Below, in pieces: positions 792 to 33,257 of a DNA stretch of 64,000 nucleotides. Location of the stretch: the NCBI GenBank assembly GCA_030646555.1, contig JAUSKP010000048.1, positions 2,236 to 66,235 of the forward strand. Direction: 5' to 3'. Source of the DNA: a bacterium (GTDB lineage: Bacteria > Patescibacteriota > Minisyncoccia > UBA6257 > 02-FULL-45-10c). The position numbers and the translations under genes are program-made. Position 1 is the stretch's first letter. Each line of letters begins with the position of its first letter. The notes under the pieces were generated by a model, which was not told where the DNA came from, did no database searches, and saw only the letters and a program-made list of their open reading frames with translations.

Positions 792-2456
792 ATGAAAAAA
801 ATAAATATCAATAAAAGCGACGAGGCGGCTCTTATTGTTGAAAAAATTATAGAAACCGATTCAGACGAAGTTATTTTAATTATCCCAAGATTTTCTCAAC
901 TAGGGGAGTCTTTGAGCAATTTCCATCTTTTAAAAAGAGAGGCCGACGCTATAAGTAAAAAAATATTAATAGAGTCCGTAGATAACCGCGTTATTGAATT
1001 AGCCGAGCTTGCAGGCATTGAAGCCATAAATCCTTTTTTTGTAAAAAATAAAAGGCAATTTTCAGATATAATCCCTAAAAAAGAAAAAAGCGGGTCAGGT
1101 AAAAAAGATAAACCATCAGTTTCTACCAGAGAGACTTCTCGCGGAGAGGAAGATTGGAAAAAAGAAGAGGAATTTATTAAAAAAATTTCCAGCAATTTAA
1201 GCCTTGAAGAATTTGAAAACAAACAAAGTAGATTTCATAAAAAAGAAAAAGAGGAAAGAGTAGAAGAAGAAAGTAGTGAGGAAGTTGATGGATCTGAAGA
1301 AAAGGAATCTTTCATAAAAAAGATTCCCATTAAAATGGTTGTCGGAGCCGTTGTTTTAGGGTTGGTTGTTTTTGGCGCCGTCACAATACTTCCCAAAGTA
1401 GACATTAAGCTCGTTTCTAAAAAAATAGATTGGTCTTATAACGATTCAGTGATCACCCAAGTAAATGCTAAAGCTGATTACAAGACTGTCACCATTCCTA
1501 ATCAAAAATCTACTTCATCTAAATCTTCCTCTCTGCCATTTCCGGCAACCGGAAAAAAACAAGTTTCCGACAAAGCTTCCGGAAAAATGACGATCTATAA
1601 CAGCTATAGTTCCGATGCTCAAACCTTAGTAAAAGATACCCGTTTTCTTTCTCCCGATGGAAAGATATTTAAATTAGCCAAACAGATCATTGTGCCGGGA
1701 GCTAAAATATCCGAGGGCAAGATACTTCCATCAAGCATTGACGCGGATGTTGTTGCCGAAAAAGCCGGTGAAGAATACAACGTTGGTCCGGTGAAACTTT
1801 TCCAGATTCCAGGATTTAAAGGCACTCCAAAATACGCGGCGTTTTACGGGGAATCAAAAGGCAGTATGGCCGGCGGATTTGTTGGAGAAATTTCTTATCC
1901 AACCACATCCGATATTGCCGCTGCCAAGAAAAAAATGAAAGAAACATTGGAAAGCAGTTTGAAGACGGAGCTTTATTCTAAAATTTCCAGCGATTTTAAA
2001 ATTGTGGAAGGATCCTCGGTTTTTTCAACCACAAAAGAAGAGATAAATGAAACCGTTGATAAGGACGGCAATTTTTCTATTTCATCTGAAGCGCAGATGA
2101 CCGTTATTTCTTTTAAAGAATCCGATTTGATTGATGTATTAAGTCAAAAAGCGAAAGCCGAGAAAGGCGAGAATTATGCCGTTAAAAGCCATAGTTTGGA
2201 ATATGGCATTGCCAGAATGGATGTAGCTTCCGGGAGATTGAGCTTCCCGATGACTTTTAAGGCTGTTTTGAGCTATAAAACAGATATTGAAAAGCTTAAA
2301 AGCGATATTGCCGATATGTCGGATATTAAACTCAGAGAAACGATCTTTTCTCTTCCCAGTATTGATATGGAAAGCCAGAACGTTGTTTCGTTTTGGCCAT
2401 TTTGGGTAAAAACGGTTCCGAACAACCTAAATAAGATAAATATAACGGTTGACTAA
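792..2456 (+). CDS. hypothetical membrane protein: Lys/Glu-rich cytoplasmic N-region, one TM helix, large extracytoplasmic domain
   Basis: 554-aa ORF; TM segment VVGAVVLGLVVFGAVTIL; low-complexity KEEE stretch; no catalytic motif recognised. Confidence 0.55.
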   Translation: MKKININKSDEAALIVEKIIETDSDEVILIIPRFSQLGESLSNFHLLKREADAISKKILIESVDNRVIELAELAGIEAINPFFVKNKRQFSDIIPKKEKSGSGKKDKPSVSTRETSRGEEDWKKEEEFIKKISSNLSLEEFENKQSRFHKKEKEERVEEESSEEVDGSEEKESFIKKIPIKMVVGAVVLGLVVFGAVTILPKVDIKLVSKKIDWSYNDSVITQVNAKADYKTVTIPNQKSTSSKSSSLPFPATGKKQVSDKASGKMTIYNSYSSDAQTLVKDTRFLSPDGKIFKLAKQIIVPGAKISEGKILPSSIDADVVAEKAGEEYNVGPVKLFQIPGFKGTPKYAAFYGESKGSMAGGFVGEISYPTTSDIAAAKKKMKETLESSLKTELYSKISSDFKIVEGSSVFSTTKEEINETVDKDGNFSISSEAQMTVISFKESDLIDVLSQKAKAEKGENYAVKSHSLEYGIARMDVASGRLSFPMTFKAVLSYKTDIEKLKSDIADMSDIKLRETIFSLPSIDMESQNVVSFWPFWVKTVPNNLNKINITVD

Positions 2457-2495
2457 AATATAGCGCCGTGCTATATTTTGCATACCGTTTTTATT

Positions 2496-2708
2496 ATGAA
2501 AGATGACTCAGTAAAGCAGCTGGAAGGCATCGTTGAAGAGGCTCTTCCGGGCACTAATTTTAGAGTAGTAAGTGGAGATAAGAAAATTCTCGCGCATCTT
2601 TCTGGTAAAATGCGCATGAATTATATTAAAATATTACCAGGCGATAAGGTCCTGCTCGATGTCAGCGCTTACGATGAGACTCGGGGAAGAATAACAAGAA
2701 GACTTTAA
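2496..2708 (+). CDS. infA: translation initiation factor IF-1
   Basis: 70-aa S1-like fold sequence (LPGTNFRVV...[20 protein letters not shown]...YD..RGRI). The ATG at 2496 is preferred over the upstream TTG at 2478 given by the ORF track. Confidence 0.85.
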
Positions 2709-2750
2709 AGTAATCAACTAATAGCGAATTAAGTACGAATTTACGAATAA
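2707..2750. repeat. D-family repeat AAGTAATCAACTAATAGCGAATTAAGTACGAATTTACGAATAA immediately after the infA stop
   Basis: See the 54283-54325 feature; both copies begin at the A of the TAA stop. Confidence 0.75.
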
Positions 2751-2754
2751 TACT

Positions 2755-2868
2755 ATGAAGGTAAGAGCTTCGGTAAAAAAAATTTGCAACAGCTGTATAG
2801 TGGTCAGAAGAAAGGGCCGCGTTTGCATTGTTTGCAAAACTAAAAAACATAAACAAAGACAAGGTTAA
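2755..2868 (+). CDS. rpmJ: 50S ribosomal protein L36
   Basis: 37-aa ORF below the track threshold: [37 protein letters not shown], with the Cys-x2-Cys...Cys-x-His zinc-ribbon pattern, in the canonical position between infA and rpsM. Confidence 0.8.
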
Positions 2869-2873
2869 AATTT

Positions 2874-3257
2874 ATGAGACTATTGGGTATAAATATTCCG
2901 GACAATAAAAAAGTAGAAATTTCTCTTATGTATCTTTATGGCATAGGCCGTACTTTGTCGCGCGATATTTTGGAAAAAACTAGAATTGATATGAATAAAA
3001 GAGCGAAAGATCTGACTTCCGATGAACTTAGCAAGCTTAAAGAATATATTGAAAAAAATTATAAAATTGAAGGAGAATTAAAACAGATTATCAAGCAAAA
3101 TATAATGATGCTGAAAGATTTGGGAACTTATAGGGGATCCAGGCATGCCCGCAAACTTCCAGTGCGCGGACAAAGGACAAAAACCAATTCTAGAACCGTT
3201 CGCGGCAATGTCAGAAAAACTGCCGGCAGCGGTAAGAGAAAAACTGACTTAAAATAA
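2874..3257 (+). CDS. rpsM: 30S ribosomal protein S13
   Basis: MRLLGINIP...YLYGIGR; basic C-terminal tail; operon position. Confidence 0.9.
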   Translation: MRLLGINIPDNKKVEISLMYLYGIGRTLSRDILEKTRIDMNKRAKDLTSDELSKLKEYIEKNYKIEGELKQIIKQNIMMLKDLGTYRGSRHARKLPVRGQRTKTNSRTVRGNVRKTAGSGKRKTDLK

Positions 3258-21466: not shown

Positions 21467-21577
21467 TGTCATTCCGGGCTCGACCCGGAATCCAGTCCGT
21501 CATTGCGAGCCCTAAAGGGGCGTGGCAATCTAATGAATTACTAGAGATTGCTTCGTCGCAGACTTCTCGCAATGACG
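21467..21577. repeat. composite palindromic element (A-unit, B-unit, spacer, inverted B-unit)
   Basis: TGTCATTCCGGGCTCGACCCGGAATCC + GTCATTGCGAGCCCTAAAGGGGCGTGGCAATC ... GATTGCTTCGTCGCAGACTTCTCGCAATGACG. Confidence 0.8.
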
Positions 21578-22016: not shown

Positions 22017-24365
22017 ATGTTTAACTTTTTTTCTTTTTTTGATCCGGTCAAGAAGCTTAAACCGGTTATTGAAAAAATAAATGATCTGGAAAAAGAAATA
22101 TCTTCTTTGAGCAATGAACAGCTTTTGGAAGAAAGCAAAAAACTTTTTGAAATAGAAATAGGCGAGAATGAATTGGTAAAAGGTTTTGCTTTAGTCAGAG
22201 AAACTGCCAAGAGAAATCTTGGCCAGCGTCATTTTGATGTCCAGCTGATGGGCGGCTTGGCGCTCCACGAAGGAAGAATTGCTGAAATGGCAACCGGTGA
22301 AGGAAAAACATTGGCTTCCACCGCGCCGATATATTTGAATGCGCTTTCCAAAAAAGGCGTTCACGTGGTAACCGTCAATGAATATTTAGCCAAAAGAGAT
22401 GCTGTTTGGATGGGCCAAATTTATCATGCTTTGGGGCTTTCTGTGGCTTGTTTGATCCACGAAGGCGCTTTGATGTATGACCCAAAATACATCTCTAAAA
22501 ACGCTGAAACGCTCATAGACAGGGAAAGGGACACAACCGGCAGTTTTATGGTGCAAGGCGAGTATTTAAGGCCAATTTCGCGCAAAGAAGCCTATTTAGC
22601 GGACATTACCTATGGCACAAACCATGAATTCGGCTTTGACTACCTAAGGGACAATTTAGCTTATTCTAGCGGAAACCAGGCGCAAAGAGGGCATAATTAT
22701 GTAGTAATTGATGAAATAGACAGCATTTTAATTGATGAAGCTAGGACCCCGCTTATTATTTCTGCTCCGGACGAAGAATCCAGCGATTTTTATAAGCAAT
22801 TTTCGCGCATAGTTTCCATGCTCAAAAAGGACGAGGATTATATAATTGACGAGAAAATGAAGTCGGCCGACATCACCGACGAAGGAATAAATAAAGTTGA
22901 AAAAGCTTTAAAGATAAAAAATCTTTATGATCCGGAAAATCTGAGACTGACCCGATATTTGCAGGAAACCCTGAAAGCTTACGGTTTGTTCAGGCGAGAC
23001 AAAGATTATGTGGTAAAAAATAATGAAGTAATTATCGTTGACCAGTTTACCGGCAGGCTTATGCCGGGCAGAAGATATTCCGGCGGATTGCATCAGGCCT
23101 TGGAGGCGAAAGAAAATGCGCAAGTTCAAAATGAATCCAGGACCTATGCGCAAATTACAATTCAAAATTATTTCAGGCTTTATAAAAAGATTGGGGGTAT
23201 GACCGGCACTGCCAGGACTTCAGCCGAGGAATTTGAAAAAGTATACGGACTGAAAGTTTTAAATATTCCGACCAATAAACCTTTGGCGAGAATTGATCAG
23301 CCAGACTTGATTTATAAAAACGAAGGCGCGAAATACAACGCCATTATTGAAGATGTTAAAGAAAGGCAAAAAATGGGTCAGCCGATACTCATCGGTTCAA
23401 TTTCTATAGAAAAAAATGAAATTTTGTCTAATTTGCTTAATAAATTCGGCGTGAGACACGAAATATTAAATGCTAAAAATCATGAACGTGAGGGCGCCAT
23501 TATTGCCCAGGCAGGAAGAGTCGGGGCCGTGACAGTCGCCACTAATATGGCGGGCCGTGGTGTAGATATTGTTCTTGGCGGCAATCCGGTGGATCCGGTA
23601 GAAAACCAAAAGGTAAAAGAATTGGGCGGACTCCACGTGATCGGCACGGAAAGGCACGAGGCTAGAAGAATTGACTATCAGCTTCAGGGACGAAGCGGAA
23701 GGCAGGGAGATCAAGGCTCATCCCAGTTTTTCCTTTCCTTGGAAGATGATCTTTTGCGTGTTTTTGGCGGAGAAAGAATTAAAAATTTAATGGAAAATTT
23801 TAATATCCCTGAAAATATGCCAATTGAATCGGGGATTGTGTCCAAAGCAGTTTCTCAAGCTCAAACCAAAATTGAAGGATTTAATTTTGACTCAAGAAAA
23901 AATTTGCTTGATTATGACGACATTTTAAATAAACAAAGACTCTCTGTTTATAAGAAACGCCAGGAAATGCTTGAAAAAAGTACTCATCCACAAATACTTT
24001 CTGTTTTAGATCTGTTTTGGATGAATCATTTGGAAAGTATGGAGGCCCTGCGGGAATCTGTGAGAATAAGGGCTTATGGCCAGCATGATCCGCTTGTTGA
24101 ATATCGCCGTGAAAGCCACGTTTTATATAGGCAGATGCTGGAGGGTTTTGAGAAATGGCTTGTTGAAAATAAAGAAAAAATTGAGGAAATGATTAAACAA
24201 CAAGCAGCCTCCTCTGTCATTCCCGCGAAAGCGGGAATCCAGGAAAAGAACTGGATTCCGGGTCAAGCCCGGAATGACAACAAGATGAATGGCCAAAAAG
24301 TTGGCAGAAATGATAATTGTCCATGCGGAAGCGGAAAAAAATACAAAAAGTGCCACGGAAAATAA
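22017..24365 (+). CDS. secA: preprotein translocase ATPase SecA with C-terminal zinc-binding tail and an in-frame repeat-encoded insertion
   Basis: DEAD-like motor motifs (MATGEGKT, VIDEIDSILIDEARTPLIIS), C-terminal CPCGSGKKYKKCHGK. Residues VIPAKAGIQEKNWIPGQARND are encoded by an A-family repeat pair. Confidence 0.9.
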   Translation: MFNFFSFFDPVKKLKPVIEKINDLEKEISSLSNEQLLEESKKLFEIEIGENELVKGFALVRETAKRNLGQRHFDVQLMGGLALHEGRIAEMATGEGKTLASTAPIYLNALSKKGVHVVTVNEYLAKRDAVWMGQIYHALGLSVACLIHEGALMYDPKYISKNAETLIDRERDTTGSFMVQGEYLRPISRKEAYLADITYGTNHEFGFDYLRDNLAYSSGNQAQRGHNYVVIDEIDSILIDEARTPLIISAPDEESSDFYKQFSRIVSMLKKDEDYIIDEKMKSADITDEGINKVEKALKIKNLYDPENLRLTRYLQETLKAYGLFRRDKDYVVKNNEVIIVDQFTGRLMPGRRYSGGLHQALEAKENAQVQNESRTYAQITIQNYFRLYKKIGGMTGTARTSAEEFEKVYGLKVLNIPTNKPLARIDQPDLIYKNEGAKYNAIIEDVKERQKMGQPILIGSISIEKNEILSNLLNKFGVRHEILNAKNHEREGAIIAQAGRVGAVTVATNMAGRGVDIVLGGNPVDPVENQKVKELGGLHVIGTERHEARRIDYQLQGRSGRQGDQGSSQFFLSLEDDLLRVFGGERIKNLMENFNIPENMPIESGIVSKAVSQAQTKIEGFNFDSRKNLLDYDDILNKQRLSVYKKRQEMLEKSTHPQILSVLDLFWMNHLESMEALRESVRIRAYGQHDPLVEYRRESHVLYRQMLEGFEKWLVENKEKIEEMIKQQAASSVIPAKAGIQEKNWIPGQARNDNKMNGQKVGRNDNCPCGSGKKYKKCHGK
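24215..24279. repeat. A-family repeat pair inserted in-frame in the secA 3' end
   Basis: TGTCATTCCCGCGAAAGCGGGAATCCAG...GGATTCCGGGTCAAGCCCGGAATGACA translates in the secA frame as SVIPAKAGIQEKNWIPGQARND. Confidence 0.8.
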
Positions 24366-24391
24366 TTTTAGGAAGTCCGACTTCCTAAATT

Positions 24392-24422
24392 AAAAACCTC
24401 CAAAATTTTGGAGGTTTTTTTG
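24392..24422. terminator. bidirectional rho-independent terminator between secA and the pilin-like gene
   Basis: Palindrome CCTCCAAAATTTTGGAGG followed by TTTTTTT and preceded by AAAAA. An additional hairpin AGGAAGTCCGACTTCCT lies at 24370-24386. Confidence 0.75.
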
Positions 24423-24431
24423 CTTCTAAAC

Positions 24432-26768
24432 TTACCTTATTTTTAATTTCAGTCCAGTAATTTCGGCTCTTAATTCTTCAATCTGTTTCTGCTGGTCTTG
24501 AATAGCGCCGGTCAAAATTGCTTCCATACCGGTTGGATTGTACCAATAGTATCCTTTATCATCTTGCGAGATCATTTCCGGAATAACATTTTTAACCTCT
24601 TGAGCAATAAATCCATACTTCAATCCCGGATTTGTGCCAAACTGGCTGTCGTGAAGCGCGTTCCATCTGTAAGAAACAGGGCGAAGAGCCATTATTTTAT
24701 TAAGAGACTCTCCTTTTAATTCACTATAAACATTTTTCCATCGCTGGTCAGAAGTGCTAGTCCAGGCAGTTCCCGTAGACAATCCGGCTGTTCCGACAAC
24801 ACTAAGCGCGTACGTCCCTGGCGCCGTCGTCCCAATGCCGACTTTGCCGGATGAATTTACCGTCAAAACATCACCCACTGAAGCATCGCTAACAGAAAAA
24901 TAATTCTTTCCTCCATTATAGTTTCCATAAGCGGAAGTTGGAGGCGTAAAATTAGCTGTCCATCTGGCAATCCCTTTGCTTACACGAACCTCATCTATTG
25001 CCCCGGTAAATCTTGACCCAGGGGCAGAGTCTGCGCCAAGGAAAAAGCCGGCGGTGGCGGCGTCATTGGTCGGAACCCCTGTTACGTCTTTAGTGTCTTG
25101 AAGTGCACCATCTATGTATAATTTTAGCGTGTTGCTTTGCCTAATAAAGGCGACGTGGTGCCAAGCATTATCACTGGTGTCCACCGTAGAGGTTACATCG
25201 TAGGCCGTCGCAGAGCTGTTCCAAATATACGCCCATAAATATTTCCCGCCGTAAATTTTCCAACTGGAACCGGCGCCGGTATTGTCTCCATATGCAATTA
25301 TAGGGTTAGTCCATTGACTATCCGTAGTAATCGCGCTTTTGTACCATAGATCTATAGTGAATTCGCCGCTTCCCATTTCATAGTCAACGTTATCCGTTGG
25401 TCCGGCAACATAGTCGCCTGTACCATCAAACAAAATAGAACCTGTCCCAAATTTTTGAAATGCTGTGTCAATTTGAGCGTCTGCTTGGCGCGTCATAGTT
25501 TTACTGGATTCATCGGTTATAGTAGCGGAACCGTCTGTTCCATTGGCATGGATAAGCGTTTTACTATAACTGTCATCCACACCTACTTCCGTAAATAATC
25601 CAGTATCGCGTCCTCTTACGTCAAGTGTTGATTCTGGTGTCGTCGTCCCTATGCCGACTTTGCCGGCAGTTGAAATAAATATCGTTGATGTTCCGACTGC
25701 GGTGTTTGCACTGCTAAAGTATGCAAGCTGGCCGGTAGAACCCGTCAAACTCGCGCTTCCGCCCGCGACACAAGTTCCATTTATGGCAAAACAGCCTCTT
25801 GCAACATCTATTCCGCCAGTTGAAGAAAAAGTAGATGTGGCAGTTGAAAAGTTTATGCCATTAGTATTTCCCACAGAAAACAAACTGCCGGGAGTCGTGG
25901 AGGAAATGCCGACGTTGCCGCCATTAGTGATGATTAAGTTAGTAGCCGTGGAAGAACCAATCACAAAAGCTGGACCGGTAATTCCGTTGGGATTGACAGA
26001 CAAAAGTCCCCATGGAGAAGAAGAGGCGATGCCAGTCTTGCCCTCTATTATCATTCCTGAAGTTGGCGCCGCGATAATGCCGTAAGTTGCTCCGACAGAA
26101 GCGCTGCCAGTTATACCCAGTTTGGACAGGGGCGCCGTATTTCCGATGCCGACACTACCACTTATATAAGCATTATTCCAAGGCAAAGCAGTAGTGCCGA
26201 TATCATAAAAAGTTGCGGCGCCGGGAATAAGATTAGAATCAAAAGTAGCGGCGGACACGCGGGCAATTGCCGAGCTTAAAGTGCGGGAAAAAGCGGATGC
26301 CGGATTAGTGGTGTTGTAGCTCAAAGTCAGATCAATTTGCACGGAATCATGCCCTGAATATCCGGAAACTTTTAAAAAGTTAACTGCGTCGGCAACAACA
26401 CTGCTATTGGTAAGCGGTTGGGGAGTGCCGTTAGCTTCTTCTTTATAAACTATGCCGTTTAAAATATAAAATTCCGTAGGATTTTTGGTATCGTCTTTAA
26501 ATCTCAAAACTAAAGTGGAGGTGGAAGTGCCGGCGTCTATATCAATGACAGAAGAATCCCTAATAGATCTCTGCATATTTTGCAGGGTGAAATTAAGCTG
26601 TTCATTGACTTCTATGACGGCAGTTTGCCTGCTTTTAATTTTTGTAGTGTCAATCAGAACGCCGGATAAAACTGCTCCTGTGGCGCCTAAGATGGCGGTA
26701 TAAATTAAAACTTCCATGAGGGTAAAACCACCTATTTTTTTATTTGTAGTCATAGATATATTATACAA
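24432..26768 (-). CDS. type IV pilin-like protein with tail-fibre-like repeats, LamG-like domain and C-terminal S74 intramolecular-chaperone (auto-cleaving) domain
   Basis: N-terminal class-III signal KKIGG|FTLMEVLI with Glu at +5. Gly/Ser/Thr-rich repeats of the GKVGIGTTTPESTLDVRG type. LamG-like segment (WHHVAFIRQSNTLKLYIDG...AIDEVRVSKGIARW). C-terminal ...STSDQRWKNVYSEL...LRPVSYRWN...GFIAQEVKNVIPEM...IQDQQKQIEELRAEI matches the phage tail-spike/endosialidase chaperone domain. Confidence 0.8.
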   Translation of the reverse strand: MYNISMTTNKKIGGFTLMEVLIYTAILGATGAVLSGVLIDTTKIKSRQTAVIEVNEQLNFTLQNMQRSIRDSSVIDIDAGTSTSTLVLRFKDDTKNPTEFYILNGIVYKEEANGTPQPLTNSSVVADAVNFLKVSGYSGHDSVQIDLTLSYNTTNPASAFSRTLSSAIARVSAATFDSNLIPGAATFYDIGTTALPWNNAYISGSVGIGNTAPLSKLGITGSASVGATYGIIAAPTSGMIIEGKTGIASSSPWGLLSVNPNGITGPAFVIGSSTATNLIITNGGNVGISSTTPGSLFSVGNTNGINFSTATSTFSSTGGIDVARGCFAINGTCVAGGSASLTGSTGQLAYFSSANTAVGTSTIFISTAGKVGIGTTTPESTLDVRGRDTGLFTEVGVDDSYSKTLIHANGTDGSATITDESSKTMTRQADAQIDTAFQKFGTGSILFDGTGDYVAGPTDNVDYEMGSGEFTIDLWYKSAITTDSQWTNPIIAYGDNTGAGSSWKIYGGKYLWAYIWNSSATAYDVTSTVDTSDNAWHHVAFIRQSNTLKLYIDGALQDTKDVTGVPTNDAATAGFFLGADSAPGSRFTGAIDEVRVSKGIARWTANFTPPTSAYGNYNGGKNYFSVSDASVGDVLTVNSSGKVGIGTTAPGTYALSVVGTAGLSTGTAWTSTSDQRWKNVYSELKGESLNKIMALRPVSYRWNALHDSQFGTNPGLKYGFIAQEVKNVIPEMISQDDKGYYWYNPTGMEAILTGAIQDQQKQIEELRAEITGLKLKIR

Positions 26769-26782
26769 TAATATTAGGTTAA

Positions 26783-26836
26783 GGAATATAGAATTTAGAA
26801 TATTGAATATAGAATAGGAATAGAGAATGTTGAATT
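26783..26836. repeat. AT-rich GAATATAGAAT-type low-complexity repeat (inverted copy at 27236-27275; similar motif at 34088-34135)
   Basis: AGAATATTGAATATAGAATA here versus the reverse complement of 27245-27270 (AGAATATTGAATACAGAATA) gives 19/20 identity. The two copies flank the four-helix-bundle gene. Confidence 0.5.
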
Positions 26837-27225
26837 TAAGATTCGTATCTTTTCTGGCGAGTAGCTTGCAATAAGCCTGTAAGAAGTTTATTGGCTATAA
26901 TTGATTGCTCAGCGCATTCGTCAAAATATTCTTTTGATAAATAACCAACATCCTTAGCAATTAAAAGCTGGTTTTGAAGCTCAGTCATTGAACCCTTAGC
27001 GTTGCTGTAGAAATAATGTTTTTCTTTTGAGGACCTTCTGCTAAAACCCTCGGCAATATTAGAAGTAAAAGAAACTACAGCTCTTCTCATTTGATCTGTG
27101 AGTCCATATTTTTCTTCTGAAGGAAAGTTTTTAGTTTCCTTATAAATCATCAAAACTAGTTTGTGTCCTTCCTGCCAAACTAATAAATCGGTAAATCTTT
27201 GAATTTTCTTAATTTCCTTATTCAT
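26836..27225 (-). CDS. four-helix-bundle protein (23S rRNA IVS-protein family, TIGR02436-like)
   Basis: 129 aa; LLVWQ....L...IY..T..FP..E.YGLTDQMRRA..S...NIAEGF.R.S..E...F...A.GS..E; family assignment from memory of the conserved pattern. Confidence 0.6.
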   Translation of the reverse strand: MNKEIKKIQRFTDLLVWQEGHKLVLMIYKETKNFPSEEKYGLTDQMRRAVVSFTSNIAEGFSRRSSKEKHYFYSNAKGSMTELQNQLLIAKDVGYLSKEYFDECAEQSIIANKLLTGLLQATRQKRYES

Positions 27226-27235
27226 AGTTTTAGTT

Positions 27236-27275
27236 TTTTATTCTATATTCTATATTCTGTATTCAATATTCTCAT
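27236..27275. repeat. inverted partner of the 26783-26836 AT-rich repeat
   Basis: TTCTATATTCTATATTCTGTATTCAATATTCTC; see the 26783-26836 feature. Confidence 0.5.
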
Positions 27276-27970
27276 TATACCCCAGAGGGGTCCGTGAAAA
27301 AGATAACCAAAGTTTTAAAAAGAATTTTAATATCTAGCCATAAAGACTGATTTTCCAAATAATATTTGTCGTATTCTAATTCCTTAAGAAAGGGGAGTCC
27401 TGAAGCGCCATTCACTTGAGATAGGCCGGTCAAGCCCGTTTTTGCCGCAAGAAGCTCGCGATATTCTCTGGGGTAAGCAAATAGTTCTTCCGGTTCGTGC
27501 GGCCTTGGGCCGACCAAAGAAAGCTCTCCTTTTAAAACATTTATTAATTGCGGAAGCTCATCTAATCTGAATTTTCTTAAAAACCTGCCAACTTTTGTAA
27601 TGCGGGGATCATTTTTTATCTTAAAGAATGGCCCGTCCTTGCGCTCATTTAAGCTTAATAAATCTTTCTTTTGTTTTTCAGCGCCTAAAACCATGGATCT
27701 GAATTTATACACTTTGATTATTTTTCCTTCGCTTATTCTGTCTAGTTTTATTAAAATCGGACTATTTGTCATTTTTGCGAAAAATCCCCCTTCATCCCCC
27801 TTTATAAAGGGGGAAAGAGGGGGATTAGGATTTGTTAATATTTGGGACATCGGAAGTCCAAGAAAAGAATCCATTTTTATGGCCAGCGCGATGAACGGAA
27901 AGAACGGAAGCAAAATAATTAGACCTATTAATGAGCCAAGTATGTCAATTAGTCTTTTTATGATAAACAT
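27275..27970 (-). CDS. initiating sugar transferase (bacterial sugar transferase / WbaP-WcaJ C-terminal domain family) with in-frame palindrome insertion
   Basis: N-terminal TM, KVYKFRSM, LSLVGPRPHEPEE..., LTGLSQVNG signature. Extra segment FLGLPMSQILTNPNPPLSPFIKGDEGG between the conserved AIK.DS and FF...KFRSM positions. Confidence 0.8.
   Translation of the reverse strand: MFIIKRLIDILGSLIGLIILLPFFPFIALAIKMDSFLGLPMSQILTNPNPPLSPFIKGDEGGFFAKMTNSPILIKLDRISEGKIIKVYKFRSMVLGAEKQKKDLLSLNERKDGPFFKIKNDPRITKVGRFLRKFRLDELPQLINVLKGELSLVGPRPHEPEELFAYPREYRELLAAKTGLTGLSQVNGASGLPFLKELEYDKYYLENQSLWLDIKILFKTLVIFFTDPSGV
27783..27826. repeat. 44-nt nested perfect palindrome inside the sugar transferase coding region
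   Basis: AATCCCCC-ttcat-CCCCCTTTATAAAGGGGG-aaaga-GGGGGATT. The reverse complement translates in-frame to NPPLSPFIKGDEGG. Confidence 0.85.
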
Positions 27971-27992
27971 TTTTTAATTATATACTATTATT

Positions 27993-28192
27993 GTTAATAA
28001 TTTTAAATTACAAATTTTAAATTTTTAATCAATACCCAATTACTAAATTTAAATGAATAAACAAAAACAAGGAAGGGTTTACGGGTCTATGTTATAATTT
28101 TGAAATCAAAAAAGATGAAATAAATGTTAGAACCTGTTTTTAAATTTAGATATTACTGTTTTAAAATTGATTTAAAATTTGTAATTTTAAAT
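27993..28192. repeat. inverted AT-rich repeats (TTTAAATTACAAATTTTAAA / TTTAAAATTTGTAATTTTAAA) bracketing the divergent promoter region between the sugar transferase and GT4 genes
   Basis: Arms at 27993-28013 and 28172-28192. An extended -10 TGTTATAAT at 28091-28099 lies between them. Confidence 0.45.
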
Positions 28193-28206
28193 TTAATATT
28201 TATTAT

Positions 28207-29685
28207 ATGCGCGTTGCAATCATTCACGATTATCTAAATCAATATGGCGGAGCGGAAAGAGTACTTGAAGCTTTTTGCGAGCTTTTTCCTGATGCGCCAA
28301 TCTATACTCTTTTTTACGATGAGGAAAAAACACTCGGGAGATTTAAAGACAAGGATATTAGAACAAGTTTTTTGGATATGAACTGGATTGCCACGTCTCA
28401 CCTGTCCGAAGCTTTACGCGAAGGAGGGTCGCAGGCTTTCCCGATTGCAAAGCAATCGAGGATCCTCGATAAAGTCGGGACTCGCAATGACAGAAAGGGG
28501 GAACTGGATTCCCGCTTTCGCGGGAATGACAGAGAGATTGCTTCGGCGCAGACTTCTCGCAATGACGGAATGGAAGCGGGAATAGTGGAAAAGAAAGGCG
28601 GAATCTTTCATAAATTTGTAATAAATAATCACAGGCTTTTTATCCCGCTAATGCCTATCGCCGCTTCGCTTATGAAAGTTGACGATGACTACGATGTGGT
28701 TTTATCTTCTAGCGCCGGATTCGGAAAGGGGATGAGAGTCGGGAAAAACACTATCCATATTTCTTATTGCCATACGCCCCTGCGTTACGCCTGGGAACAT
28801 TACAAATATTTTAATTGGCAAACTTATTTAAAAATTTTATCTGCCCCGGCTTTTTGGTATTTAAGAATATGGGATAAGTGGGTTGGACGAAAACCGCAAA
28901 AACTAATCGCCAATTCCAAATATATCTCCGAAAAAATAAAAAAATATTATAAAAGAGAGGCGGAAGTAATTTATCCGCCGGTAGATACCGAAAAATTCTG
29001 CGTCAAACCGAAAGTCAAAAAAGGGGATTATTTTTTGGCTGTCGGCAGGCTTATTCACTACAAAAAATTTGACCTGATCATTCGGGCATTCAATAAATTG
29101 AATTTGCCGCTTTTAATAATCGGCAATGGTCCGGAATTGGAAAATTTAAAACAATTAGCTAAATCCCCCCGCCTTCGCCCCGACTTCGCGAATGTTTCGC
29201 CGGGCAAACAAGGCTCCCTCCTTCGCCAAGGCTATGGCGGGCAAGCTGGCGGGCAAAGTAAAATAGAGTTTTTAACTTCCATAACCGATGAGCAATTAAT
29301 TCTTTTATATAATGGCGCGCAAGCTTTTATTTTTCCTCAGGTAGAAGATTTTGGACTGGTGGCCGCTGAAGCGCAGGCTTGCGGAACGCCGGTAATAGCC
29401 CTAAACCAAGGCGGTGGAAGAGAAATAGTTGAAGACGGCAAAACCGGCATTTTGTTTAACAATCAAAATGTAGATGATCTGATTATGGCGGTAAAAAGAT
29501 TCACCCTGTTAAATAATTTCGCTTTTAGAGAAATTCCCGCAAGAGCGGGATTTAACAGGGTAAAAATAAAGCAATTTGACCAAAAATTGATCCGTGAATC
29601 TGCGCTGCGATTTTCTAAAAATAAATTTAAAAAAGCGATATTGAAGGCGGTTTATGAAGCAAGGAATGCGTCATCCCGTACTTGA
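28207..29685 (+). CDS. GT4-family glycosyltransferase carrying repeat-derived in-frame insertions
   Basis: N-terminal MRVAIIHDYLNQYGGAERV, C-terminal GT-B motifs (E..G....EA.ACG.PVIA). Two internal segments and the C-terminal NASSRT-stop are encoded by A/B/C-family repeat units. Confidence 0.8.
   Translation: MRVAIIHDYLNQYGGAERVLEAFCELFPDAPIYTLFYDEEKTLGRFKDKDIRTSFLDMNWIATSHLSEALREGGSQAFPIAKQSRILDKVGTRNDRKGELDSRFRGNDREIASAQTSRNDGMEAGIVEKKGGIFHKFVINNHRLFIPLMPIAASLMKVDDDYDVVLSSSAGFGKGMRVGKNTIHISYCHTPLRYAWEHYKYFNWQTYLKILSAPAFWYLRIWDKWVGRKPQKLIANSKYISEKIKKYYKREAEVIYPPVDTEKFCVKPKVKKGDYFLAVGRLIHYKKFDLIIRAFNKLNLPLLIIGNGPELENLKQLAKSPRLRPDFANVSPGKQGSLLRQGYGGQAGGQSKIEFLTSITDEQLILLYNGAQAFIFPQVEDFGLVAAEAQACGTPVIALNQGGGREIVEDGKTGILFNNQNVDDLIMAVKRFTLLNNFAFREIPARAGFNRVKIKQFDQKLIRESALRFSKNKFKKAILKAVYEARNASSRT
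28385..28585. repeat. tandem B-long, A and B repeat units inserted in-frame in the GT4 gene (about 67 aa)
   Basis: GATTGCCACG...CTCGCAATGACA (109 nt), then GGATTCCCGCTTTCGCGGGAATGACA, then GATTGCTTCGGCGCAGACTTCTCGCAATGACGG. Encodes ...LDSRFRGNDREIASAQTSRNDG.... Confidence 0.85.
29163..29258. repeat. C-family GC-rich hairpin repeat inserted in-frame in GT4 (encodes SPRLRPDFANVSPGKQGSLLRQGYGGQAGGQS)
   Basis: CCGCCTTCGCC...CTCCTTCGCCAAGGCTATGGCGGGCAAGCTGGCGGGCAAAG resembles the 32694-32749 and 33205-33235 units. Interrupts the conserved GT-B region between LKQLAK and KIEFL. Confidence 0.7.
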
Positions 29686-29758
29686 TACGGGATCCAGGTC
29701 GAGGACTGGATTCCAAATCAAGTTTGGAATGACAGAGGGAGAAATGCTCGCAATGACA
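29669..29758. repeat. composite A/A/B-remnant element overlapping the GT4 stop codon
   Basis: GTCATCCCGTACTTGATACGGGATCC (the GT4 TGA stop lies in the hairpin loop) ... GGATTCCAAATCAAGTTTGGAATGACA ... GCTCGCAATGACAGA. Confidence 0.8.
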
Positions 29759-29764
29759 GAAAAT

Positions 29765-29799
29765 TTGACAAATAGGTGAAATTAGTGTATTTTATACAT
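29765..29799 (+). promoter_or_regulatory. sigma70-type promoter with operator-like palindrome, sibling of 21154-21186
   Basis: TTGACAAATAGGTGAAATTAGTGTATTTTATACAT; about 30/38 identity to the 21153 module, including the GTGTAT.TTATACA core. Confidence 0.6.
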
Positions 29800-30155: not shown

Positions 30156-30298
30156 TGTCATTCCTGCGAAAGCAGGAATCCATGTTTTTAGTTCATAATC
30201 TCTGGATTCCGGGTCAAGCCCGGAATGACAGATATGAGTAGATTGCTTCCTCCTTCGCATGGCTTCGGACGGACAAGTCGGCGGCACTCGCAATGACG
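30156..30298. repeat. composite palindromic element (A fwd, A rev, B-long rev with internal C hairpin)
   Basis: TGTCATTCCTGCGAAAGCAGGAATCC ... GGATTCCGGGTCAAGCCCGGAATGACA ... GATTGCTTCCTCCTTCGCATGGCTTCGGACGGACAAGTCGGCGGCACTCGCAATGACGG. Confidence 0.8.
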
Positions 30299-32749: not shown

Positions 32750-32820
32750 GCGGGATTAGTACAATGGTAGTACGCGACCTTCCCAAGGTTGAGACGCGAG
32801 TTAGATTCTCGTATCCCGCT
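32750..32820 (+). tRNA. tRNA-Gly (anticodon CCC), atypical T-loop
   Basis: Acceptor GCGGGAT/ATCCCGC is a perfect 7 bp; D-arm GTAC-AATGGTA-GTAC; anticodon arm CGACC-TTCCCAA-GGTTG. The T-loop is TTAGATT with A where the conserved C56 should be, so it could be degenerate. Confidence 0.5.
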
Positions 32821-32942: not shown

Positions 32943-33015
32943 GCCACCTTAGCTCAGCTGGTAGAGCAATGCTTTCGTAAAGCAGAGGTCCCCGGTTCAA
33001 TCCCGGGAGGTGGCT
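32943..33015 (+). tRNA. tRNA-Thr (anticodon CGT)
   Basis: Acceptor GCCACCT/AGGTGGC is a perfect 7 bp; D-arm GCTC-AGCTGGTA-GAGC; anticodon loop TTCGTAA; T-arm CCCGG-TTCAATC-CCGGG; no encoded CCA. Confidence 0.8.
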
Positions 33016-33047: not shown

Positions 33048-33067
33048 CCCTGCCTGCCGGCAGGCAG
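33048..33067. repeat. perfect 20-nt palindrome CCTGCCTGCCGGCAGGCAGG downstream of tRNA-Thr
   Basis: Self-complementary; possible tRNA 3' processing or terminator hairpin. Confidence 0.5.
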
Positions 33068-33164
33068 GAATTCTGGCAGGGGGCTCCGAAATAAAAAAAC
33101 AAATGACAAATTTCTAATATCTAATCAAATCCAAAATTCAAACAACAAAATTTTTAAACAAGAG

Positions 33165-33257
33165 TGTCATTCCCGCGAAAGCGGGAATCCAGAAAACCTA
33201 GATTCCGCATCCCTCCGCCGCAAGGCTTCGGACGGGCAAGCAAGTGCGGAATGACAG
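33165..33257. repeat. composite palindromic element (A fwd + A-long rev with internal C hairpin) upstream of prfB
   Basis: TGTCATTCCCGCGAAAGCGGGAATCC ... GATTCCGCATCCCTCCGCCGCAAGGCTTCGGACGGGCAAGCAAGTGCGGAATGACAGA. Confidence 0.8.

Follow-up and report, generated by a model that had tools for sequence, protein, structure and literature searches.

A nested palindrome in a Patescibacteria sugar transferase gene, probably a copy of a 46-nucleotide hairpin repeat found in many phyla

Selfish palindromic DNA inserted in frame into protein-coding genes is a phenomenon of known kind, which to our knowledge is textbook material only for Rickettsia. Nostocales cyanobacteria reportedly carry small dispersed repeats, described by Elhai et al. 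in 2008 as tens of bases long, with hairpin potential, nested in one another and without a known mobilizing enzyme. The Rickettsia palindromic elements (RPEs; Ogata et al. 2000) are about 100-150 bp long and form genus-specific families, each of which encodes a conserved peptide (PMC10969869). Here we analyze a nested palindrome inside the gene for an initiating sugar transferase on a 64,000-nucleotide stretch of the Patescibacteria contig JAUSKP010000048.1 (assembly GCA_030646555.1); this whole stretch is referred to below as the window. An earlier sequence-only reading of the window had described structured, repeat-like DNA inserted in frame in this enzyme, and comparison with orthologues that lack the segment, together with a Pfam PF02397 profile that splits around it, bears this out. 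The palindrome is probably a copy of a small non-autonomous repeat, a piece of selfish hairpin DNA tolerated in a permissive loop.

The palindrome spans 44 nt of nested pairing at positions 27783-27826 and reads AATCCCCC-ttcat-CCCCCTTTATAAAGGGGG-aaaga-GGGGGATT on the plus strand. Its outer arms, AATCCCCC and GGGGGATT, are 8 nt each and fully complementary, and a palindrome scan places a perfect 20-nt palindrome, TCCCCCTTTATAAAGGGGGA, at 27795-27814 within them. The spacers ttcat (27791-27795; ATGAA on the gene strand) and aaaga (27814-27818; TCTTT on the gene strand) form the two sides of an internal loop. The sequence-only reading had taken the whole 44 nt for a perfect nested palindrome: the nesting and both sets of arms stand, but the perfection does not, since these two 5-nt spacers are non-complementary. 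An inverted-repeat search recovers 25-nt arms around the palindrome that are 88% complementary. Judging by its sequence, its fold and the ends seen in 28 family copies, the complete unit covers 46 nt (27782-27827), and the outermost pair of the window copy (27782/27827) is a mismatch. The gene lies on the minus strand, and its open reading frame (ORF; 27275-27970) translates the palindrome as NPPLSPFIKGDEGG. Folded as DNA, the palindrome reaches -16.1 kcal/mol (z = -3.55; 0 of 200 shuffles were equally stable), and the 131-nt region around the insert reaches -40.4 kcal/mol (z = -3.49). A search of Rfam 15 gave no match at gathering score at the element in the window or at 12 element-bearing loci, and a permissive E-value returned generic hairpins far below threshold.

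That such a structure reflects chance or faulty assembly is an explanation with a probability close to nil. Palindrome length alone is weak evidence, since about 0.7 perfect palindromes with a half-length of at least 9 (long AT-rich ones) are expected per shuffled window. The 44-mer and its 18-nt core occur once each in the window, where shuffling predicts 0.00 and 0.06 occurrences, and four of the window's five-base C or G runs cluster at the palindrome. The decisive evidence that the palindrome is real is the recurrence of the element in many other genomes: it is found at well over 150 other loci, with conserved bases outside the fixed search pattern. Assembly artefact is excluded because the same allele recurs in independent assemblies, a protein identical to that of the window being encoded on Logan contig L001 and a sister allele being present in two separate assemblies (L002 from ENA and L144 from JGI).

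The family to which the window copy belongs has the consensus AAAT-CCCCC-TCTTT-CCCCCTTTnnAAAGGGGG-ATGAA-GGGGG-ATTT, about 46 nt long with a C5TTTnnAAAG5 core, and is called the C5/G5 family below. A scan of one genome per species with a 21-base pattern (CCCCCTTTNNAAAGGGGGN{3,7}GGGGG) matched at least 120 stretches, of which we estimate about 1-10 to be chance matches. Among the matches listed are members of the Thermodesulfobacteriota, Chloroflexota, Bacteroidota, Cyanobacteriota, Pseudomonadota, Poribacteria, Elusimicrobiota and Patescibacteria, and the cultured isolates listed include Algoriphagus, Iodobacter, Moraxella, Pseudoxanthomonas, Microcoleus and Paenibacillus. JGI metagenomes, scanned more strictly with the TCTTT spacer fixed, yielded 32 stretches with unrelated flanks, on contigs ranging in GC content from 0.37 to 0.74. 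Bases that the pattern leaves free are conserved all the same: the last G5 run is followed by (G)ATTT, with T at +3 in 82% and at +4 in 87% of copies, and the flanks beyond this ATTT tail are random. Symmetric copies like that of the window, with AAATCCCCC on the left, make up about 15% (20/137), and the asymmetric majority form has no T-run directly 3' of the stem. A copy nearly identical to ours, AAATCCCCCTTTCATCCCCCTTTGTAAAGGGGGAAAGAGGGGGATTTT, includes both spacers of the window palindrome and lies at a Syntrophaceae locus (L092), upstream of the likely start of an ORF that reads in translation as quinolinate synthase (nadA)-like.

Pairing and spacer composition were counted in 28 distinct symmetric copies, the pairs by script, as a gap introduced by MAFFT had put the right arm out of register. 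With TCTTT fixed, 15 of the 28 have ATGAA(A) as the free spacer and 22 have one that starts with ATG; the complementary AAAGA appears in only 3. Outside the C5/G5 runs, the four unforced positions form Watson-Crick pairs in 27, 26, 26 and 21 copies, and the fifth does so in 8. The outer arms covary, occurring as AAAT/ATTT, CAAA/TTTG, CACA/TGTG and GAAA/TTTC. Because pairing collapses at the fifth outer position, the unit appears to be about 46 nt long with sharp ends, and the sequence comparisons show that a family of such elements exists, whose ends are defined and whose copies occupy unrelated sites across many phyla.

No target-site duplication is visible around the copies. All-against-all clustering of the ORFs in 8-kb stretches around about 150 copies revealed no linked transposase or other recurrent gene, only housekeeping families such as ABC ATPases. 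Annotated plasmids and phages yielded a few weak, unannotated matches, on Pseudanabaena and Acinetobacter plasmids, and the pattern is present in 42 viral stretches of IMG/VR. A scan with the left flank of a viral copy, looking for its empty site, returned filled contigs only. Predicted viral contigs (L183/L164, L193 and L178) hold up to five C5/G5 copies within a few kb. The 19-kb viral contig IMGVR_UViG_3300002821_000286 (L183/L164) has five; the four on L183 share one orientation, and copies on this contig sit in short spacers followed by ribosome-binding-site-like sequence. Such contigs could point to a role in the processing of phage transcripts or to phages as carriers. Eleven viral contigs (L163, L165, L172, L173, L179, L180, L189, L194, L198, L202 and L203) share a single conserved locus, aagaagaagCCCCCTTTGGAAAGGGGGTCTGGGGGaaaacctttgatttt, which matches the pattern without the ATTT tail; it probably represents a conserved hairpin peculiar to one phage group and unrelated to the family.

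Most copies are intergenic or at the edges of genes: open frames that cover a copy have a median length of 99 codons, compared with 373 at random positions in the same loci, and of the 32 metagenome stretches only L144, which is the L002 allele of the same transferase, is clearly genic. Orientation relative to genes is unbiased, with 36 and 32 copies near gene ends and 29 and 23 near gene starts. A genic copy elsewhere lies in a Wolfebacteria enolase (L118, contig DAHWFZ010000065.1, frame at 0-based positions 1448-3044), which has at least two clean insertions, of 27 and 21 amino acids (aa), relative to the solved enolase 2pa6, where they have no counterpart residues; the second of them carries the C5/G5 family. 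Further repeat-type segments are seen near the N-terminus of this enolase (SEYLRMT..., GLRMTERFAQDD). Other in-frame genic copies lie in genes that, by reading of their translations, encode UvrA, MurD, Lnt (Microcoleus) and a family 4 glycosyltransferase (GT4; isolate Algoriphagus aquimarinus). The peptides read from the element in other genes differ (PPLERG, PPFEKGG, PPFQRGG).

In the window's transferase, the whole in-frame insertion occupies 27763-27865 on the minus strand. Empty-site DNA and protein alignment define it as 103 nt in place of 4 nt (AAWG), encoding FLGLPMSQILTNPNPPLSPFIKGDEGGFFAKMTN(S); the empty sites read GATTCC|AATG|GTCCGG in L008 and AATTCT|AAAG|GTCCGG in L009. The net change is +99 nt, or +33 aa, with no stop codon, and the ORF stays intact to the conserved C-terminus. 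At the protein level, a 35-aa segment, FLGLPMSQILTNPNPPLSPFIKGDEGGFFAKMTNS, stands where insert-free orthologues have KG. Of 35 close homologues, 26 lack the segment and step directly from AIK(L/M)DS to (K/R)GPVLIKLDRVS; the insert-free P0009-P0011 among them share 88-89% core identity with the window protein. We conclude from these homologues, from the empty sites in L008 and L009, from the split Pfam profile and from the excess length over WbaP that the segment is an insertion relative to its orthologues. The homologue alignment thus confirms the extra loop that the sequence-only reading had suspected between AIK.DS and the KFRSM block. The loop had been put at about 27 aa, short of the 35 aa that replace KG (net +33 aa), and the FF that had been counted as family-conserved belongs to the insert, conservation restarting at P(I/V)LIKLDR(I/V)S. 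A loop of the same length conserved in unrelated taxa, combined with a palindrome unique to its site, would have pointed away from a repeat; no such loop was found among the homologues, and the 44-mer, which is single-copy in the window, has many relatives elsewhere. One homologue of 195 aa (P0032) has AITINSNCNINISKDRVS instead of AIKLDSKGPVLIKLDRVS at the insertion codon, possibly through a local frameshift or as what a lost insert left behind. Introns, inteins and translational bypass were set aside, since with all alleles in frame and free of stops none of them is needed.

The host gene (27275-27970, minus strand) encodes a protein of 231 aa that its ORF, Pfam match, homologues and solved structures identify as a small single-domain phosphoglycosyl transferase of the PglC/WbaP catalytic-domain type. 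It matches PF02397 (Bac_transf) with E = 2.8e-54 and 183.8 bits (cutoff 27), in two stretches split at the insert, residues 66-225 corresponding to profile positions 28-178. Its nearest homologues are sugar transferases of Patescibacteria/Minisyncoccota, mostly 195-200 aa long and up to 89% identical. In PglC, an Asp-Glu pair and a PRP motif are active-site residues. Since these residues of the catalytic domain, D137-E138 (within RLDELPQL) and GPRPHEP (P155, R156, P157), are invariant in the 35-sequence alignment, the gene looks functional.

The protein also matches solved chains of WbaP and PglC, and like these monotopic phosphoglycosyl transferases (PDB 8t53, 8e37, 8g1n) it has the catalytic domain, the Asp-Glu pair and an N-terminal hydrophobic helix. 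Against WbaP (8t53), residues 77-223 pair with chain residues 370-520, and residues 4-32 give a weak, non-significant match to 331-359. The known enzymes differ in the stretch between the helix and the first conserved strand, which is 10 residues in WbaP and 44 in our protein, a spacing that depends on the weak N-terminal match. Because the WbaP spacing places the excess residues after the membrane helix, the insert sits in the linker between this helix and the catalytic domain. The (K/R)GP linker motif of the PF02397 family reads NSP in the host protein, and its linker is not the short one of the family. A structure prediction from the 35-sequence alignment (mean pLDDT 55.6, pTM 0.32) was too poor for placing the loop and was not used.

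The 46-nt unit accounts for only the middle of the insert, and sequence comparison shows that the whole is a mosaic of three palindromic repeat families, at 27828-27865, 27782-27827 and 27763-27781. On the gene strand, the left part, TTTCTTGGACTTCCGATGTCCCAAATATTAACAAATCC (27828-27865), corresponds to the left half of a second palindromic family, a GGACTTCC-type hairpin whose right arm is missing, and the right part, TTCGCAAAAATGACAAATA (27763-27781), to the right arm, in degenerate form, of a palindromic repeat of the GTCATTGCG...CGCAATGAC type. These two outer pieces do have relatives within the window. The sequence-only reading had assigned the palindrome to a different repeat class from the families that it labeled A/B/C. 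The C5/G5 unit is indeed a family of its own, but the insert is not cleanly separate from the window's other repeats, because the mosaic includes the GTCATTGCG...CGCAATGAC-type arm.

Eight close homologues (P0001-P0008) have inserts at exactly the same codon, with differing contents, and we compared the insert DNA of six of them. The insert of L002 is the same ~100-nt sequence as in the window, from which it differs by three substitutions, two of them synonymous, and one 3-nt deletion. L003 shares 28 of 29 nt with the window's left part and then continues into a complete hairpin, GGACTTCCGATGTCC...GGACATCGGAAGTCC, of which the window keeps the left arm only; relative to L003 the window has a 66-nt block swapped for a 74-nt block rather than a simple insertion. 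Relatives of this hairpin occur in the 3' intergenic region of L002 and at 24371-24385 in the window. The inserts of L005, L006 and L007 are GTCATTGCGAG...CTCGCAATGAC-type palindromes, from a family (CTCGCAATGAC) that is repeated in the window as family D1; the end of the L006 insert, CTCGCAATGACAAATA|GTCC, parallels CGCAAAAATGACAAATA|GTCC in the window. L004 holds several GTCATTCCCGCG/CGGAATGAC-type copies. On L145, an unrelated low-GC groundwater contig, a C5/G5 copy lies between GTCATTGCC and CGTAATGAC arms.

All filled alleles have junctions in common, TTTYTY after GAT(T/A)CT on the left and (ATGAC)AAATA|GTCC or a close variant on the right, and all have Ser or Asn in place of Gly before the conserved Pro. 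These shared features, and the replacement of one block by another between the window and L003, would be explained by a single ancient hit that later diversified through recombination or gene conversion with repeat copies and through small deletions, without the 46-mer transposing into the gene anew. We regard this history as possible, though the less probable one. In a tree of 195 core residues the insert-bearing alleles are not monophyletic (resolution is weak), and several filled alleles are no closer to the window than empty-site orthologues are; a single hit would moreover still need a donor of the 46-mer elsewhere, so that only the route of entry changes. The shared site fits one old insertion with internal turnover as well as repeated hits at the same codon. 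The insert shows ~97% identity in the pair of window and L002, compared with 60-70% in the upstream flank and ~86% over the next 330 nt downstream (sliding comparison; the gene as a whole is 81% identical). This higher identity may stem from recent acquisition, from a recombination tract or from nucleotide-level selection.

One rival reading is that the hairpin acts as a functional cis signal in mRNA or DNA. It could attenuate or terminate transcription within the gene, or it could pause translation just past the N-terminal membrane helix and so help membrane targeting, with selection maintaining some strong hairpin at this codon. Besides the conservation of the insert above that of the flanking coding DNA, the stable 131-nt fold and the palindromic, hairpin-forming DNA at the exact codon in 9 of 9 insert-bearing alleles agree with such a role, as do the same-orientation copies in short spacers before ribosome-binding sites on one viral contig. 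On the sense strand, the hairpin (27814-27785) is followed by TTTTTCG, giving a terminator-like configuration at 27775-27814 (minus strand) that is a consensus pattern match only. It is the sole site in a terminator consensus scan of 27000-28400 and has the GC-rich stem and direct T-run of an intrinsic terminator, but the window copy covers ORF codons 49-62 and so does not lie downstream of the gene as an intrinsic terminator would. We consider a functional hairpin unlikely, because most orthologues, some of them 88-89% identical, do without the insert, because the family has no orientation bias toward gene ends or starts, and because similar in-frame repeats lie away from membrane helices, in the neighboring GT4 gene, the Wolfebacteria enolase and apparently SecA. 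The lack of a T-run right after the stem in the asymmetric majority form also speaks against it.

Selection could instead act on the product, with the insert kept for a Pro/Gly-rich, membrane-adjacent surface loop that has a function of its own. The intact frame, the invariant D137-E138 and GPRPHEP, and the two synonymous changes among the three substitutions between the window and L002 are compatible with this. We nevertheless find it very improbable, because the peptides that orthologues encode at this position are unrelated and because copies of the element outside this gene are mostly non-coding; its conservation tracks the DNA palindrome and not a peptide motif, as the differing PPLERG, PPFEKGG and PPFQRGG sequences of other genes illustrate.

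Under the reading that we prefer, selfish hairpin DNA tolerated in a permissive loop, the 46-mer copy would lie inside an older palindromic insertion in the transferase gene. The ribosome would read through the insert, since its net length is a multiple of three and it has no in-frame stop, and the resulting Pro/Gly-rich extra loop would have no function of its own; read-through would be expected to yield the peptides MDSFLGLPMSQILTNPNPPLSPFIK and GDEGGFFAK. Selection would remove disruptive insertions and leave those in permissive loops. The element presumably is, or was, mobile, and an enzyme acting in trans may recognize it as a single-stranded hairpin, as hinted by the conserved asymmetric internal loop, the sharp ends, the lack of target duplication and two cases of nesting within hairpin repeats. 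The phenomenon is general in the source genome, where the neighboring GT4 has three in-frame inserts relative to its orthologue.

Several points weigh against this interpretation. The window holds one copy only, so repetition within the source genome is not seen, and no empty/filled pair isolates the 46-mer, whose boundaries and target are taken from the family alignment. The case for mobility comes from distribution alone, as there is no recurrent nearby gene and no target-site duplication. Near-identity across phyla, including the unpaired spacers, could reflect a conserved function; the sense-strand hairpin with its T-run resembles a terminator; and the greater conservation of the insert relative to flanking coding DNA would fit selection at the nucleotide level too. 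Translation through the insert is an assumption.

A bolder proposal is that the 46-nt palindrome is a mobile element that crosses phyla, possibly carried by phages, and that a widespread enzyme of hosts or phages, recognizing the hairpin with its TCTTT/ATGAA loop, moves it in trans. We think this rather doubtful. If it is true, few known mobile DNA elements would be smaller or more widely distributed, and these would be a general source of in-frame loops in essential enzymes (transferases, enolase, UvrA, MurD); if they are mobile, they would define a lower size limit for mobile DNA and point to a widely distributed hairpin-recognizing enzyme.

Three aspects appear to be new: a 46-nt element nearly identical across phyla, mosaic nesting in Patescibacteria enzymes, and one codon occupied by different palindromes in orthologues. 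No earlier description of the family came to light, and twelve variants of the element core (16-18 nt) were not printed anywhere in the full-text literature searched, a corpus whose coverage stops short of subscription journals, and no paper was found that joins the Candidate Phyla Radiation or Patescibacteria with transposable elements of the miniature inverted-repeat kind (MITEs) or repetitive extragenic palindromic (REP) sequences. The presence of the phenomenon in Patescibacteria matters because their genomes are very small, yet several enzymes in one 64-kb window bear inserts. Such inserts inflate and distort the protein predictions of metagenome-assembled genomes. Domain matches are split by them, and spurious "hypothetical proteins" arise that bear PPLxKGGxGG-like motifs; a family model would aid annotation. 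The shared insertion codon also offers a natural allele series for the loop tolerance of a monotopic membrane enzyme.

Other genes of the window contain comparable sequences. The GT4 gene at 28207-29685 (plus strand; 492 aa) has three in-frame inserts of ~77, 30 and 20 aa relative to the 91%-identical, 362-aa orthologue in L009; comparison with L009 places them at ~28378-28608, 29167-29256 and 29503-29562 (plus strand). They hold repeat-type peptides such as SRFRGNDREIASAQTSRNDG and LRQGYGGQAGG, and the L008 orthologue has a different 27-aa insert at the first of the three sites. In SecA (22017-24365, plus strand), a C-terminal linker, SSVIPAKAGIQEKNWIPGQARND, appears to be encoded in part, around 24215-24279, by the repeat families D7 (TGTCATTCCCGCGAAAGCGGGAATCCAG) and D9 (CTGGATTCCGGGTCAAGCCCGGAATGACA), which are also found between genes at 30156, 33165, 29706 and 30202; by its sequence, this stretch looks like another in-frame repeat insertion. 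Just 3' of the secA stop, at 24371-24419, lies a GGAAGTCCGACTTCC hairpin that has relatives in the left part of the transferase insert and in the hairpin pair 3' of the L002 gene, in the intergenic region. After it comes a perfect palindrome of 28 nt, AAAAACCTCCAAAATTTTGGAGGTTTTT, with the look of a bidirectional terminator. At least four short palindromic families (D1, D7, D9 and D12) are clustered at 29706-29772, 30156-30277 and 33165-33240 and occur also at 21546, 21976, 28536 and 32320, standing next to one another both between genes and within the GT4 gene. They are probably the A/B/C families of the sequence-only reading. A perfect 20-nt GC-rich palindrome, CCTGCCTGCCGGCAGGCAGG, is found at 33049-33068, near two tRNA genes (32750-32820 and 32943-33015).

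The transferase is adjoined by a small gene of the PF05635 family (23S rRNA intervening-sequence protein family; 26836-27225, minus strand). In relatives, a PF05635 gene lies at the opposite flank (L008, L009) or at each of the two flanks (L006), or its place is taken by a GIY-YIG gene (L005); the flanks of the transferase thus hold variable small genes. The ORF at 24432-26768 (minus strand; 778 aa) has a type IV pilin-like N-terminus, GFTLMEVLIY, and the gene at the equivalent position in L009 has a Peptidase_S74 domain.

Among described repeats, the small dispersed repeats of cyanobacteria are, like the 46-nt element, tiny, hairpin-forming and nested, and they reportedly differ in sequence. 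MITEs do not describe the family well: the whole unit is palindromic, the copies show no duplication and no transposase recurs nearby. Two further candidates were rejected, the integron attC site, as the GTTRRRY core is missing, and the neisserial dRS3 repeat, as the arms differ. With RPEs, as summarized in PMC10969869, our insert shares the main features of palindromic selfish repeats that lie in frame in unrelated housekeeping genes, are read through and are compatible with the protein fold, in small genomes. It differs in that the unit is only ~46 nt long, occurs in many phyla and on viral contigs, is mostly intergenic and encodes differing peptides, and in that the 103-nt insert is a mosaic of three families. 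The pneumococcal SPRITE, listed in the same paper, likewise combines a hairpin with a T-run that resembles an intrinsic terminator; it is described there as species-specific and intergenic (PMC10969869), whereas the 46-nt family has no orientation bias and its majority form lacks a T-run after the stem.

The REP/REPIN sequences and their RAYT proteins (PMC3116915, PMC3733652) offer another close parallel, being short, GC-rich imperfect palindromes that are mostly extragenic, have conserved unpaired bases, are presumed to be handled as single-stranded hairpins and leave no target duplication. The 46-nt family has neither a GTAG nor a CGTC head, its ends being AAAT/ATTT, CAAA/TTTG and similar, and no RAYT-like gene recurs in the 8-kb stretches around its copies. 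REP families are lineage-specific and reach high copy numbers, whereas the 46-nt sequence is nearly the same across phyla and single-copy in the window. By analogy, the hairpin features of the 46-mer would be those expected of a substrate of the REP/RAYT kind or of one resembling the ends of IS200/IS605 elements.

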